A stretch of 64,000 nucleotides of DNA from contig JAVJWO010000018.1 of the NCBI GenBank assembly GCA_040222015.1, positions 31,048-95,047 of the forward strand, written 5' to 3'. A model generated the notes under the pieces. The model did no database searches, was not told the DNA's origin, and saw only the letters and a list, made by a program, of their open reading frames with translations. The DNA comes from Coleofasciculus chthonoplastes F2-STO-03 (GTDB lineage Bacteria; Cyanobacteriota; Cyanobacteriia; Cyanobacteriales; Coleofasciculaceae). Shown piece by piece: positions 14,874 through 63,472 of the stretch. Each line of letters opens with the position of its first letter. The first letter of the stretch is position 1. The position numbers and the translations under genes are program-made.

Positions 14874-16334
14874 ATGACAGCCAAAAAGCTTCATCAGCAA
14901 GAGAGTTCTTATAATTATCAAACCAATGGACGGATAAATACAGGATTCAAAGACGCTGTAGGTATAGAGACTTTAGCGAATCTAGGGATTGGGCAGCAAA
15001 ACTTTGTGAATAGGAATTTGGAGCGAACACTTAAGGAATTATCCGATTTAGAATTTGCGTTAGATAGAGCCGCAATTGTGGCGCTTACCGATAAACAGGG
15101 CGTGATTCACTATGTCAATGATAAATTTTGCGAAATATCACAATATCGTCGAGAAGAGTTAATTGGCAAAACCCATCGCCTGATCAAATCGGGTCATCAT
15201 CCGCCAGCATTTTTTAAAGAATTCTGGACGACGATCGCATCGGGCAAAGTCTGGAAAGGCGAAATTAAGAATAAAGCCAAGGATGGAACCTATTATTGGG
15301 TAGATACCACAGTCGTTCCCTTTTTGAATGAGCAGGGGGAAATCTACCAATATTTAGCGATTCGCTTTGATATCACCGAGCGCAAGCAGGTAGAAGAAGC
15401 CTTGCAACGATCAGAACAGAAGGCGCGACAACAAGCACAACAACTCGAAGAGGCATTGGAGAAGCTTAAACAAACCCAAAGTCAACTGATTCAAAGCGAA
15501 AAAATGTCAAGCGTGGGTCAACTGCTGGCTGGAATTGCCCACGAAATTAATAATCCGGTCAATTTTATCTACGGCAATCTGGTTCATACTCGCGAGTATG
15601 TTAATAGTGTGTTACAAGTTTTGGCGCTTTACCAGAAACATTGTCCCGTGGAAATACCTGAGATTGAAGCCGTTATCGAGGACGAGGATATCGAGTTTAT
15701 TGTTGAAGATTTACCCAAAATGGTGTCGTCTATGCAAATCGGAGCCAACCGCATCCGAGACATTGTGCTGTCGTTGCGGAACTTCTCACGTCTGGATGAG
15801 CAACAGATGCAACCGGTTGATATTCATCAAGGGTTAGAGAGTACATTATTGATTCTGCACAATCGATTAAAAGCTAAAGCTGAACGCCCGGAAATTCAGG
15901 TGATTAAAAACTATGGGGAGTTGCCACCTGTAATATGTTATGGCAGTCAGCTTAATCAAGTGTTTATGAATCTGATTGCTAATGCAATTGACGCCTTTGA
16001 GAATCAGCCGGAACCGCGACAAATTACGATTTATACAGCCGTACAAAGCGGGGAATATTGGCAGAAGCAGGGGATACTTTCAGAGTGCGATCGCGCTTCT
16101 CAGACGCCGTGGGTGGTGATTACCATTGCCGATAATGGACCCGGAATGCCAAAAGCGACTCAGGATCACTTATTTGATCCCTTCTTTACCACCAAACCCA
16201 CGGGGAAGGGGACAGGGTTAGGGTTATCCATCGCCCATAATATCATCGTCGAAAAGCACCAGGGTCAAATCCGATGTATTTCCCAGGATGGAAAGGGAAC
16301 TCAGTTTATCGTGGCGATTCCCTTGGTGCAGTAG
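14874..16334 (+). CDS. PAS-domain sensor histidine kinase
   Basis: PAS/PAC (YVNDKFC...GTYYWVDTT), HisKA AHEINNP, HATPase DNGPG/GTGLGL; ATG 14874 preferred as start. Confidence 0.93.
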   Translation: MTAKKLHQQESSYNYQTNGRINTGFKDAVGIETLANLGIGQQNFVNRNLERTLKELSDLEFALDRAAIVALTDKQGVIHYVNDKFCEISQYRREELIGKTHRLIKSGHHPPAFFKEFWTTIASGKVWKGEIKNKAKDGTYYWVDTTVVPFLNEQGEIYQYLAIRFDITERKQVEEALQRSEQKARQQAQQLEEALEKLKQTQSQLIQSEKMSSVGQLLAGIAHEINNPVNFIYGNLVHTREYVNSVLQVLALYQKHCPVEIPEIEAVIEDEDIEFIVEDLPKMVSSMQIGANRIRDIVLSLRNFSRLDEQQMQPVDIHQGLESTLLILHNRLKAKAERPEIQVIKNYGELPPVICYGSQLNQVFMNLIANAIDAFENQPEPRQITIYTAVQSGEYWQKQGILSECDRASQTPWVVITIADNGPGMPKATQDHLFDPFFTTKPTGKGTGLGLSIAHNIIVEKHQGQIRCISQDGKGTQFIVAIPLVQ

Positions 16335-18541: not shown

Positions 18542-19093
18542 ATGAAATACAATCCAGATCAACATCATCGACGTTCAATTCGCCTGAAAGACTATGATTA
18601 TACACAGCCTGGAGCCTATTTTATTACCATTTGTACTTGGCAACGCCAAACCCTGTTAGGTGAAATCATCGATAGTCAAATGCAGTTAAGCGATTCCGGC
18701 AAATTTGTCTATTTACATTGGCAAAATTTGCTTCACCATCATCCTAATTTAAAATTAGATGAATTTATGATTATGCCCAATCATCTCCATGGCATCCTGA
18801 TATTGACAGCGGATACTACCAGTCAAAAACACCATGGCTTGCCAGAGATTATCCGGGGATTCAAAACCTTTTCAGCACGCCGCATTAATAAAAATCGTCG
18901 CCAGAGTGGTGTCCCTGTGTGGCAACGTGGCTATTATGAACATATTATCCGCAATGAACAATCATTAACCGCGATTCGTGAATACATTGTGAATAATCCC
19001 ATAGCCTGGGAAGAAGACGAATTGCACCCTAGTGGTTCTCAAGAATGGGATGGAACCATTAAAAAATTAGCTTTGCATAAGAATCGAAGATAA
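18542..19093 (+). CDS. REP-associated tyrosine (HUH/Y1) transposase, RAYT/TnpA-REP
   Basis: RRSIRLKDYDY, YFITICT, MPNHLHGIL (HUH), WQRGYYEHIIR, YIVNNP (catalytic Tyr); flanked by GTAG-REP arrays. Confidence 0.92.
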   Translation: MKYNPDQHHRRSIRLKDYDYTQPGAYFITICTWQRQTLLGEIIDSQMQLSDSGKFVYLHWQNLLHHHPNLKLDEFMIMPNHLHGILILTADTTSQKHHGLPEIIRGFKTFSARRINKNRRQSGVPVWQRGYYEHIIRNEQSLTAIREYIVNNPIAWEEDELHPSGSQEWDGTIKKLALHKNRR

Positions 19094-28008: not shown

Positions 28009-28872
28009 CTACGTTAATTCTTGCAACAACCAAAATCCAGCAAAGGTTTCTGAGGTTGGCGTTGACTGCACTGCAAGAAAATGTATGGACTGGGCGTTTT
28101 CTTTGGCAGATTCAAAGCCTTCAGCTTCCGCTAGGGTTTGAGCATCGGTTAGGTTGGCTAAAGCCCAGCTATCACTAGCACCCGTTTCCAGTAATAGCCG
28201 GGGAGTGGCACCTCCCTGAAATTTAACAAACGCTAGTTCTAAACCTGACATCCATGCGGCTAAGGCTTTGGCGCGATCAGAGAAAATAATCATGCCCGGA
28301 ATGCGCGTATCTGGAGCCAGATCCATCATTGACAGGGGAAAAGCTTCGCCAAAGTCAATGTCCCACTCATCCATATCAGCAAATGCTTCGGCTTCCAAAC
28401 TAACCAATGCCCATTTTTGTCCCTGGATGGCATCGGGTAAGGGTTGAGGAACCTGAGGTTGGTAGCGCACAGAGGCAGAGGCGGCGGCTGAGGACTGATA
28501 TCCGGGTTGATGGGGATAAACGTCCTTGATCCGGTGGTTTAGCCAGTGATCAAGCCTGTATGTCCGACGACTGGCGATCGCGGGAATGCCTAACTCTTGG
28601 CAGGCTTTAGTAATCATGTTGTTCATCTGACGCCGGAAAAAGCGAATTTTTGTCGGTGTTTGTCCCGATGCCGCGATCGCTTCTTCTAGGGATTGCCGCA
28701 ACCATAAGGAGTTGACCTCCTGGTTGGAACAAAACTGCGCGTACTGAAATAATTTGTCCGTGGATTGGTGGATGTTTAAAGGACTCTGACAGATTAAGAC
28801 TTCCCAGAGCTTCTTCTGATTGTCATCCAATATTGGACGTGAATAGAAATCGAGTTCCCAAATAATCGTCAT
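28009..28872 (-). CDS. Tab2/Atab2 family RNA-binding protein
   Basis: IWELDFYSRP...KKLWEVLIC...VNSLWL...HFLAVQ...FAGFWLL. Confidence 0.92.
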   Translation of the reverse strand: MTIIWELDFYSRPILDDNQKKLWEVLICQSPLNIHQSTDKLFQYAQFCSNQEVNSLWLRQSLEEAIAASGQTPTKIRFFRRQMNNMITKACQELGIPAIASRRTYRLDHWLNHRIKDVYPHQPGYQSSAAASASVRYQPQVPQPLPDAIQGQKWALVSLEAEAFADMDEWDIDFGEAFPLSMMDLAPDTRIPGMIIFSDRAKALAAWMSGLELAFVKFQGGATPRLLLETGASDSWALANLTDAQTLAEAEGFESAKENAQSIHFLAVQSTPTSETFAGFWLLQELT

Positions 28873-28894
28873 CTCATTCGATGTATTGCGTTCA

Positions 28895-29239
28895 CATGAA
28901 AGTCTGGGCAATTACAGACTCGTGCTTTCAACACCTCGACTTCGCTCGGTGTTGACCCTGAGCGAAGCCGAAGGGTCAACCTGTACGCATAGGGGTTGCT
29001 TAATTGGGCTTGCGCCCCTCCCGGAAACGGGGTAACGTTTGCCTCGCATAAGTTATGCCTCGGTACTTTCTCTAACACACGCTGTTTAACCCTTTAAGCC
29101 TTTTTAATGCTGGAGTAGGTACAGACGTAGCATGCTACGTCTCTACAACGCTTAGACATAACGTAGACCGCGTAGGTCTTAGGCTGGTCAGGTTGCGGCT
29201 CAATTCCAAGCCCCCGCCTTTAGGCGTGGGGTTCCTGAC
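28895..29239 (-). mobile_element. Non-autonomous IS200/IS605-type element carrying a degenerate HEARO/IscB omega-RNA scaffold; iscB ORF absent; interrupted by two REP-like hairpins
   Basis: Minus strand: GTCAGG..CCTGAC terminal stem, CCCCACGCCTAAAGGCGGGGG hairpin, CAGCCTAAG, CTACGTT, GTTATGTCT/AGGCATAAC pairing, GGTTAAACAG, GCGAGGCAAACGTTACCCC, then ATGCGT with no iscB-like continuation. Confidence 0.7.
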
Positions 29240-29256
29240 GCCAAGATGTAATCTAA

Positions 29257-29420
29257 CCGCTTCTAAAAACCTGATCAGATCTATACAAAGATCGTCACAT
29301 CTAGGCAAAACACAGCGGTGTATGTTTATACGAGCGTTCGTCCCAAGTGCGTCAAGAGCTTCCCTGTTGAGGGTTGACCAAGGACTCCCAGTTAGAGATA
29401 CCATAATAGGTGTGCCTACT
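29257..29420 (-). ncRNA. Putative omega-RNA / right end of the TnpB-related element
   Basis: Position 3' of the nuclease gene; short repeated TAGAT motifs and terminal ...TTTTTAGAAGCGG similar to the ...TATGTAACGG end at 7191; boundaries inferred. Confidence 0.45.
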
Positions 29421-30806
29421 ATGAATAGAACACTTGAGTCTATTATTCAGTTGATGCCAATAGCTCCATACGTGCTTGCTATCGTTCACCGATAGATAGG
29501 CGGTTATGGAGCCTGGTAATTTTTCCCCTAATCTCATCCCACGACGGGCGATCACCAGTGCCGCCGCTTCATCACTAGCTAATCCATACATCCGGGCATA
29601 TTTGACGCCTCCAATCAGACTGCTATAGGCTGGATTGACTGTTTTCACTTCTATGCCGCGATTATTCAATATGGCGGTCAATAACTTGGAGAAACGACTA
29701 TAGGCCCATCCAGACAGCATTCGGGCATATTTGCGTCTGTTTTCCCTGAGTTGGGTTTTCTTGCCCGAAAAGTCTAATTCTTCACACACAATCGGGCATT
29801 GGTAGGCAATTGCCATATCCAGTAGCCGGAAACAGACCTGTCTAATCGCAGCATCCTGTTTACCCCGTGGCTGTCCCATCTCAATGGGGATTTGACCATG
29901 ATGCTTGAGATTGCCATCCCTGTCCACATAAGACCATCCTACTGAACCGGGATTGAGGTCTATCCCAATACACCCATAATGGATTGACCTGGATACCTGC
30001 TTAACAGGTGCTCTTGTAAACTGTACTGCTACACACCACTTGTTATCCTTTCGGTAAAAATACCATGTTTTAGCACCATCTTCTGGTAGTCGATTGACAT
30101 TTCTCTGGAAGTCCCCTATCTGGGATGAGACATACTTCCCGAACTTTTCCTCTAAACAATAGGGAACACGCCACCTGATTGTTTGCCCATCCCACTGGCA
30201 AGCCTGATTCCCAAATGATTCGTCTTTGGCTCCCACTACATAAACTTGTCCTTTGGGGATAGTTACCCGAATGGGAGCCGCTTTTAGGTACTCAACCTGC
30301 TTCTGGTAGTGGTTTAGCTTGCGCTTTTTGTTGTGCAGTTGAAAACGTAAGTTTTGCCAATTGCTCTGCCGATACTCGATAGAGCAAGCTAATGGCAATA
30401 CACACCCCGACTTACTGGCTTGCCAGTTTTTCTGGCGGTAAAACTTACGGGCATTCTTAAGAGAGCGTTGAGCCTTTTTAATCCATGCTGCACAGGATTT
30501 CGTTTTAGCCGTCAGTACCTTAATGTGCCGTTTACGGTTCTCTCTTGCCGCATCTACCGCGCCTTGGGCAAAAACTATCACACCATTAGCGTGACGTTTG
30601 TTTATACCGTAACTCTGCTGTAGATATCTGTTCCACCTGGACTTGTTGAATTTTTCACTTGAGAGGAGATGATTGGCTGTCTCACACCCGCAGACATGGA
30701 AAATAGCTGAATATTCCGATAGAAACATTTCTAGTCGGGTTTTCCCTAATGGGTTAAGCTCCCAAGCTGGTGTAGGTAATCCCTTGCAGTATGTAAGTGT
30801 AACCAT
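29352..30806 (-). CDS. tnpB: TnpB-related RNA-guided RuvC nuclease (IS200/IS605/IS607 accessory protein)
   Basis: RuvC-I GIDLNP, RuvC-II VCEELDF, NPAYSS, RuvC-III SDEAAALVIARRG; no CxxC zinc finger; no adjacent tnpA; start 30806 or 30830. Confidence 0.85.
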   Translation of the reverse strand: MVTLTYCKGLPTPAWELNPLGKTRLEMFLSEYSAIFHVCGCETANHLLSSEKFNKSRWNRYLQQSYGINKRHANGVIVFAQGAVDAARENRKRHIKVLTAKTKSCAAWIKKAQRSLKNARKFYRQKNWQASKSGCVLPLACSIEYRQSNWQNLRFQLHNKKRKLNHYQKQVEYLKAAPIRVTIPKGQVYVVGAKDESFGNQACQWDGQTIRWRVPYCLEEKFGKYVSSQIGDFQRNVNRLPEDGAKTWYFYRKDNKWCVAVQFTRAPVKQVSRSIHYGCIGIDLNPGSVGWSYVDRDGNLKHHGQIPIEMGQPRGKQDAAIRQVCFRLLDMAIAYQCPIVCEELDFSGKKTQLRENRRKYARMLSGWAYSRFSKLLTAILNNRGIEVKTVNPAYSSLIGGVKYARMYGLASDEAAALVIARRGMRLGEKLPGSITAYLSVNDSKHVWSYWHQLNNRLKCSIHSRHTYYGISNWESLVNPQQGSS

Positions 30807-30893
30807 TGATTCGACCGGGTCAATGTTCAATTATTGCTTTATTGTATATCGGTTTTGACGCTTCCTTGCTGCGGATGAAATACTTATTCATTA

Positions 30894-30967
30894 GGGAAGC
30901 TGGGGAAGCTGGGGAAGATGGGGAAGCTGGGGGAGCTGGGGGAGCTGGGGAAGCAGGGGGAGATGGG
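30894..30967. repeat. 9-mer tandem repeat (GGGGAAGCT)n; related arrays at 14523-14565 and, inverted, 26520-26595
   Basis: Read directly. Confidence 0.9.
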
Positions 30968-63398: not shown

Positions 63399-63472
63399 GG
63401 ACGCATAGCTCAGTTGGTTAGAGCACCACGTTGACATCGTGGGGGTCACTGGTTCGAGTCCAGTTGTGTCCA
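63399..63472 (+). tRNA. trnV: tRNA-Val(GAC)
   Basis: Acceptor GGACGCA/TGTGTCC, D-arm, anticodon arm ccacg-ttGACat-cgtgg, T-loop GGTTCGAGTCC. Confidence 0.97.

Follow-up and report, generated by a model that had tools for sequence, protein, structure and literature searches.

The cyanobacterium Coleofasciculus chthonoplastes F2-STO-03 (genome G000, a repeat-rich draft assembly of 219 contigs and 7.7 Mb) carries, upstream of the host gene tab2, two elements of the RNA-guided (OMEGA) type placed back to back. They lie in a stretch of 64,000 nucleotides (nt) of GenBank assembly GCA_040222015.1 (contig JAVJWO010000018.1, positions 31,048 to 95,047 of the forward strand), referred to here as the window, in whose coordinates positions are given. 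Along the minus strand there are, in order, a TnpB-related protein gene, the tail of its scaffold, a spacer of 16–17 nt, a HEARO RNA (the IscB-type omega-RNA scaffold), the tail of the HEARO element and tab2. This succession had been described by a reading made without database searches (the sequence-only reading) and was borne out in every detail, as was its claim that the same 17 nt occupy both guide positions: on one strand, 16–17 nt lie directly 3' of the TnpB-type scaffold and directly 5' of the IscB-type scaffold. These guide positions of the TnpB- and IscB-type families are confirmed in the passages of Meers et al. that treat them (bioRxiv 10.1101/2023.03.14.532601). The sequence-only reading went on to suggest that one transcript could serve as guide for a TnpB and for an IscB acting in trans, and named as alternatives that the elements nest beside each other or adjoin by chance.

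All features of the locus lie on the minus strand. A 7-nt repeat tract of CCCCAGCTT-like units (approximately 30894..30966), native to the intergenic region, abuts the truncated left end of a TnpB-like mobile element (29256..30893), which was delimited by homology to other copies of its family and whose right end is intact. This element contains the TnpB-related protein gene (29352..30806, 484 amino acids (aa) from an ATG start) and an omega-RNA-like scaffold (29256..29513, the 5' limit being approximate) that was delineated with RNAalifold and overlaps the 3' end of the gene as well as the 3' tail. There follows the 16-nt native leader segment of tab2, TAGATTACATCTTGGC (29240..29255; 17 nt with the T at 29256 included), which stands in the guide position of both scaffolds. 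Beyond it are the HEARO RNA (29032..29239), the tail of an IscB-less HEARO element (28873..29031), which ends ...CGAATGAG against the tab2 ATG, and, nested in that tail, a small hairpin repeat of ~47 nt (approximately 28930..28976). The last feature, tab2 (28009..28872), is intact and encodes the 287-aa RNA-binding protein Tab2/Atab2 (PF06485, E 1.6e-41; PF20429, E 2.8e-58); G000 has one tab2 orthologue and a paralogue that is 31% identical.

By sequence comparison the spacer is native tab2 leader DNA, because five sister genomes in which the site is empty (G001, G002, G003, G007 and G008) carry it uninterrupted before the tab2 ATG. The leader of these empty sites consists of the 7-nt repeat tract, ~77 nt of host sequence, ...GAGGGGT TAGATTA(C/T)A(A)CAGTCTTGGC and the tab2 ATG. 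In G001, G002, G003, G004 and G007 the tab2 leader is likewise preceded by a repeat tract of this kind, whose length and unit vary greatly among the sister genomes, with CCCCAGCTT, CCCCATCT and CCCCTGCT types. In another sister genome, G004, the HEARO element, with the nested hairpin repeat likewise in its tail, occupies the site at identical junctions; a TnpB-like gene is missing there and the host segment of 77 nt has been kept whole. The window lacks the ~77-nt host segment that the sister genomes keep, and its leader segment measures 16 nt as against 19–20 nt in relatives. Since G004 retains host DNA that is missing from G000, its state is not derived from that of G000, and it is the state of G000 that is derived. 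The comparison thus points to different arrival times for the two elements, HEARO being common to G000 and G004 and the TnpB-like element occurring at the site in G000 alone among the sister genomes compared. An adjacency unique to one strain is the first half of one ground on which the sequence-only reading would have given up its proposal, an unprocessed RNA being the second half; two other grounds that it named, the lack of a HEARO hit and a right end located elsewhere, do not apply. The spacer is four bases (ACAG or equivalent) shorter than the leader of G004 and G007, and both would-be guides consequently differ from the ancestral site.

The sequence-only reading had recognised hallmarks of HEARO and proposed the Rfam model as a check. 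That model, RF02033, matches 29239..29032 over all of its positions (1–211 of 211) at 95.3 bits, above its gathering score of 83 (E 3e-18), and the match starts exactly at the GTCAGGAACC that had been named as the scaffold's beginning. All 27 HEARO copies inspected in G000 have the same start point with unrelated DNA upstream of it, and comparison with the empty sites makes position 29239, the 5' boundary of HEARO, the boundary of a mobile element. When G004 is set against the empty sites, the element is seen to have inserted without a scar or target duplication, between ...TCTTGGC and the tab2 ATG. A search with the NF040563 profile found no iscB at the locus, where tab2 adjoins the element instead; in the rest of G000, five iscB genes exceed the cut-off of the profile. 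These five intact genes adjoin HEARO subfamilies that are 64–74% identical to the HEARO of the window; in the window's own subfamily (85–89% identical) iscB is broken or missing throughout G000. An intact iscB, for which the sequence-only reading had recommended a search, is therefore present five times in the genome but not once beside a close relative of this RNA. Stand-alone HEARO copies, those without iscB, are common in G000.

Ten iscB-less copies, that of the window and those on contigs C215, C48, C120, C33, C30, C216, C49, C139 and C165, have in common a conserved tail of ~160 nt after the end of the Rfam model, as a ten-copy alignment shows; Rfam searches matched no family to it. In eight of the ten a second conserved module (...GTAAATCCAAGGCGGTAGGG...), 40 to >300 nt long, follows on from this tail. 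The nested hairpin repeat, which is absent from the nine other tail copies, has matches of ~53 nt on at least seven other contigs and is also found in the HEARO tail of G004; at 47–53 nt it resembles a miniature mobile repeat, and a related 24-nt piece lies in the 3' tail of a TnpB-like copy on contig C69, near C69 106660. In G004 the orthologous HEARO is missing most of its middle part and is no longer scored by the model. Some 115 nt from a HEARO copy on contig C48, at 1861–1922 of the locus L024, there is a match to the Rfam family RF04353, 'Plastid-psbN 5'UTR RNA' (57.4 bits against a threshold of 50).

The known system closest to this half of the locus is the IscB omega-RNA, or HEARO, in IS200/IS605 derivatives that resemble palindrome-associated transposable elements (PATEs); minimal insertion sequence derivatives without protein-coding genes that resemble PATEs are described in the portion of Meers et al. 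(10.1101/2023.03.14.532601) concerned with them. The window element is like these in its full-length, above-threshold match, in starting at an element boundary with variable DNA upstream, in its insertion without target duplication and in pointing the same way as the gene behind it. It differs in lacking iscB, in the ~160-nt tail conserved in ten copies, in belonging to a subfamily that has no intact iscB in G000, and in lying right up against a host gene's start codon.

The right end of the TnpB-like element, which the sequence-only reading had placed at 29257 without proof, was fixed by comparing copies, first nine from the genus Coleofasciculus and then 16 from several genera. All 16 copies whose 3' end lies on a contig (a 17th runs off its contig) share the right-end sequence ...GAAGCGGT and end in AGCGG(T/A), with T in 14 and A in two, after which their flanks diverge. 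This sets the end, ...GAAGCGG(T/A), at 29257/29256 of the window, to within ±1 nt. An earlier two-copy comparison with the C69 paralogue had given an end at 29251 and a spacer of 11 nt; it was rejected, the five additional matching bases being due to chance according to the nine and then the 16 copies. The match of two tail-related metagenome contigs to the window breaks off at 29255 and at 29256, and one of the two has 27 further letters with no counterpart in the window.

The extent of the element at large was established from nine other left-end and eight other right-end copies in the genus. In seven full copies the left end is longer by ~45–50 nt, among which is the 5' arm of a 12-bp hairpin; the window keeps the 3' arm of this hairpin alone, fused to the repeat tract. 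In six of the seven full-length copies GGGT stands ~5 nt before the conserved left-end sequence. The right junction of the window fits insertion after the GGGGT of the empty site, the host base that follows the right end being the base that follows GGGGT in empty sites; the window's own left junction is deleted. We also considered an exchange in which recombination with an older relic of its family would have put the element in place of 77 nt of host DNA; this was dropped for the simpler scheme of insertion after GGGGT followed by deletion across the left junction. At ~35 nt before the ATG of the TnpB-like gene, a conserved TATACAAT-like box survives the left-end deletion. Immediately beyond the left end of a different TnpB-like copy, at L046 2320–2356 on contig C30 of G003, there is a match resembling the CRISPR repeat family DR57, with 33 bits, below the threshold of 39.

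Over the last ~260 nt of the element RNAalifold predicts, from 13 copies, 33 base pairs, of which 17 show compensatory changes. The predicted positions are paired in 92.6% of cells, compared with 81.4% in shuffled alignments (none of 500 as high) and 31–45% in slid controls; the structure was predicted on the same alignment that was later counted, so that these counts lean towards structure. A terminal helix of ACCGC with GCGGT closes the scaffold exactly at the end of the element, a trait of TnpB omega-RNAs.

In several respects the element resembles canonical TnpB elements (ISDra2, IS200/IS605): it has a structured RNA over the 3' end of the gene that ends at the right end of the element, its full copies have a subterminal hairpin at the left end, Y1 transposase genes are found elsewhere in the genome, and the modelled protein has the Cas12f/TnpB fold. 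It differs from ISDra2-like TnpB in its candidate target motif, GGGT, which is G-rich, and in its protein, which is ~490 aa long with long helical insertions, has no zinc ribbon and falls under the NF040570 cut-off. For most IS607 TnpBs, a review (PMC13565253) gives AGGAG or GAGGG. Within the window, a 199-aa frame at 18740–18997 (plus strand), ~10 kb from the locus, has a weak match to the Y1 transposase family PF01797 (34.6 bits).

The open reading frame of the TnpB-like protein extends over 30830..29352 (492 aa) if a TTG start is allowed. Translation probably begins at the ATG at 30806, and the resulting 484 aa agree with the length of an identical database entry (P0002). Pfam returned no match for this protein, although 23 of 54 relatives match PF07282 weakly. 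Among NCBIfam models, NF040570 scores 36.4 bits, below its cut-off of 100, and TIGR01766 scores 34.2 bits, above its cut-off of 32, both of these weak matches to TnpB being confined to residues 328–405. An AlphaFold2 model built on 54 diverse relatives has a pLDDT of 88.4, and its best Foldseek match has an E value of 9e-9. The structures recovered were Cas12f, Cas12g, Cas12k, Cas12m, TnpB and Fanzor2, and the first 41 rows of the result are without exception Cas12, TnpB or Fanzor.

The window protein has the RuvC triad D291, E350 and D420. In the family the first D is present in 53 of 54 members and the second position, E, in 54 of 54, while the third position (RuvC-III, position 420 of P0001) is H in 32, D in 11, G in seven and A in four. 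The zinc ribbon between RuvC-II and RuvC-III is missing from all 54 aligned members, and the 24 residues from PAY(S/T)S to the AA of RuvC-III contain no cysteine in 52 and one in the other two. Asp at RuvC-III is found in the subgroup of the window protein, His in most members and Gly or Ala in 11 of 54, and the activity of these subgroups may differ. A search at E ≤ 0.001 gives 1945 cluster representatives for the family, which is patchy in cyanobacteria (seven of 151 genomes, G000 included, at E ≤ 1e-30). A major TnpB clade, RIIIr-4, is described as lacking the C4 zinc finger and as having His in place of the RuvC-III Asp in the relevant passage of Altae-Tran et al. (2023, PNAS, PMC10691335). 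The present family is like this clade in both respects, being without the zinc finger and mostly His at RuvC-III, and the window protein differs in having Asp, a minority state in its family. Judged by its sequence against that published description, the window protein has the features of RIIIr-4.

Both kinds of element are numerous in G000. There are 35 HEARO matches (26 over the Rfam threshold), 103 TnpB matches (60 over cut-off), 17 Y1 transposase matches and eight matches to the zinc-finger-less family, the window copy among them. Of the 35 HEARO matches, however, that of the window is the single one to lie no more than 20 nt from a right end of the TnpB type. None of 19 further loci that carry this TnpB-like gene, whole or in pieces, has a HEARO match at E ≤ 0.01. 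A pattern search for the right-end motif, a gap of 12–26 nt and a common HEARO start, made over 401 cyanobacterial genomes and covering this right-end family with the commonest HEARO starts (other pairings would be missed by it), found no real case in the 400 genomes besides G000. Two further matches, in G149 and G147, were discarded, there being neither a TnpB-like gene nor a HEARO at either, and the reversed control pattern gave four matches in the same 401 genomes. A second pair in G000, on contig C45, was rejected as a case of a shared guide: the TnpB right end is at about C45:15199 and the HEARO starts at 15398, leaving ~200 nt between them and no common guide. This pair (C45:14061–15616, L013) is a canonical TnpB element followed by a co-oriented HEARO, and 561 nt across the junction are 100% identical in G007 and G002.

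We consider it probable that two unrelated, non-autonomous elements of the IS200/IS605 (OMEGA) kind inserted independently of each other, and in the same direction, in the short tab2 leader, and that the guide they share is an accident of position. Both elements are of known kinds, one an IscB-type HEARO derivative and the other with the features of the zinc-finger-less TnpB clade. On parsimony, an iscB-less HEARO would have come first, inserting scarlessly between ...TCTTGGC and the tab2 ATG, and the tab2 promoter would then have transcribed leader, HEARO and tab2 in that order, an arrangement that IscB-type RNAs require because their guide is outside the element. Later, and in the lineage of G000 only, the TnpB-like element would have inserted 19–20 nt upstream, directly after GGGGT. 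A deletion that took away the beginning of its left end and also ~77 nt of host DNA would next have immobilised the TnpB-like element, and four spacer bases were presumably also lost. What is left of the host leader stands in both guide positions because the guide of either type of element lies in the DNA beside one and the same end of the transposon, which in TnpA terms is the right end. Each encoded guide would match the empty form of this one locus alone, as the published transposon-retention model expects. The locus is like that model in that the guide is host DNA flanking the element, so that each nuclease would recognise its own empty donor joint; it differs in that two nuclease families draw their guide from the same host bases, and in that the TnpB-like element, with its truncated left end, is probably past excision.

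Several points weigh against this account. Each component of the locus is far from anything that chance would produce, and under random placement a co-oriented gap of ≤20 nt is improbable in any one genome, at a rough estimate 0.003–0.02 (calculated from 35 HEARO matches, ~70 TnpB-type genes and 7.7 Mb). The order of events depends on two genomes of uncertain kinship, given that across the tab2 region G000 stands equally close to G004 and to G001, which is without HEARO. Deletion has taken away the left junction of the TnpB-like element, at which a scarless insertion after GGGGT would be directly visible. In addition, the host sequence to the left of the insertion (TTAGAAG-A-GGGGT) resembles the right end of the element (TTAGAAG-C-GGT), a resemblance that may be explained by target preference, as GAAG or AGAAG lies within a few nt of GGGT in three of seven other left flanks.

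A working dual guide is the first of the other explanations to be weighed. Guides are ~16 nt long in both the TnpB and the IscB families. A transcript from the promoter of the TnpB-like gene would pass through the right end, the 16 nt and the HEARO, and would be processed either to a TnpB-type omega-RNA with a 3' guide or to an IscB-type omega-RNA with a 5' guide, with the consequence that the resident TnpB-like protein and an IscB in trans would be aimed at the same sequence. The geometry allows for this part of the sequence-only reading: both scaffold boundaries are exact, the TnpB-like gene is open with its D-E-D triad, its scaffold keeps the pairs of the family, and the TATACAAT-like box outlasts the left-end deletion. 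Moreover, no consensus terminator was found from the stop codon to the HEARO, tab2 is intact with its upstream host segment gone and probably depends on read-through, and G000 offers its five iscB genes over the NF040563 cut-off. Against it stands the reasoning that the 16 nt are present once per RNA molecule, so that trimming for one scaffold would strip the other. The intact iscB genes, as noted, adjoin subfamilies 64–74% identical, and the window's own subfamily has them broken or none, while the loss of most of the middle of the G004 orthologue suggests neutral decay. The TnpB-like element is probably unable to excise, so the empty site that the guide would match will not arise. The genome search for the 17-mer that the sequence-only reading had suggested found a single occurrence in G000 and no second target, and the 16-mer has no excess of matches there (59 sites at ≤3 mismatches, with 58.4 expected). 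A functioning dual guide therefore seems unlikely to us, and it is the alternatives listed by the sequence-only reading itself, nesting side by side or chance, that are favoured by the sister genomes, the separate arrivals and the non-recurrence. Among titles and abstracts of the literature on HEARO/IscB and TnpB none concerned a guide common to two OMEGA scaffolds, though no search was aimed at that idea.

A different explanation is that the proximity is not random, the first element favouring the insertion or the retention of the second nearby, whether through transcription across the site, single-stranded DNA at a flank matching the guide, or selection for an upstream co-oriented promoter. 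A bias of IscB elements towards the orientation of the upstream gene, reported in the passages of Meers et al. on this point (bioRxiv 10.1101/2023.03.14.532601), would be consistent with such an effect, as would the HEARO on C45, ~200 nt downstream of a co-oriented TnpB element. The counts are less so, with one of 35 HEARO matches in G000 within 20 nt of a TnpB-type right end, none at 19 other family loci and no genuine instance of the pattern in the 400 cyanobacterial genomes besides G000. HEARO probably came first, furthermore, with the tab2 promoter already upstream of it, so that there was no obvious gain from the later insertion. We regard a non-random proximity as very unlikely. Much the same low credence attaches to the notion of a recurring layout, in which IscB-type and TnpB-type elements would regularly stand across one guide-length stretch, with a read-through transcript arming both nucleases as a double lock or with the first element promoting insertion of the second. 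If such a layout were real, the read-through transcript would be the sole route to tab2 expression here; if the guide were dual or the proximity non-random, the locus would bear on interaction among OMEGA elements, and the searches give this no support.

An artefact of assembly, that is a chimeric join of repeats in the draft between the right end and the leader, is extremely improbable: no contig of four public runs bridges 29256/29255 and the draft, at 219 contigs, is rich in repeats, but beyond the right end the sequence runs on exactly like the native leader beyond GGGGT, as it would not after a random join, the junction of leader and HEARO is independently present in G004, and the element is well inside a 95-kb contig, ~29 kb from its nearer end.

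With regard to transcription, a sequence scan found neither a consensus terminator nor a consensus promoter between the stop codon of the TnpB-like gene and tab2. Because the upstream region is lost and yet the gene is intact, tab2 is probably expressed by read-through. A search of public sequencing runs turned up none of this strain, the fullest match containing 23% of the sampled words of 28800–29500; contigs of four runs (X1, X2, X3 and X15) were compared with the window, and none crosses the junction. A metatranscriptome contig from X15 is identical to the window over 29353–29500 only and gives neither the strand nor the ends of a transcript. Elsewhere in the window, an ordinary tRNA gene lies at 63399–63472 on the plus strand (RF00005, 69.5 bits).

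Among the related genomes this one site is preserved empty, with one element and with both, and together these states fix the boundaries of both elements to the base. The locus thereby yields a candidate target motif (GGGT) and the end of the guide-RNA scaffold for the zinc-finger-less TnpB clade, which is in print but is uncharacterised as far as the published passages compared here go. The scaffold end and the motif would be useful for testing this clade as an RNA-guided nuclease. In G000, finally, a guide-RNA element stands immediately before the start codon of tab2, whose upstream region was lost at a later time, and the host gene has tolerated both changes.

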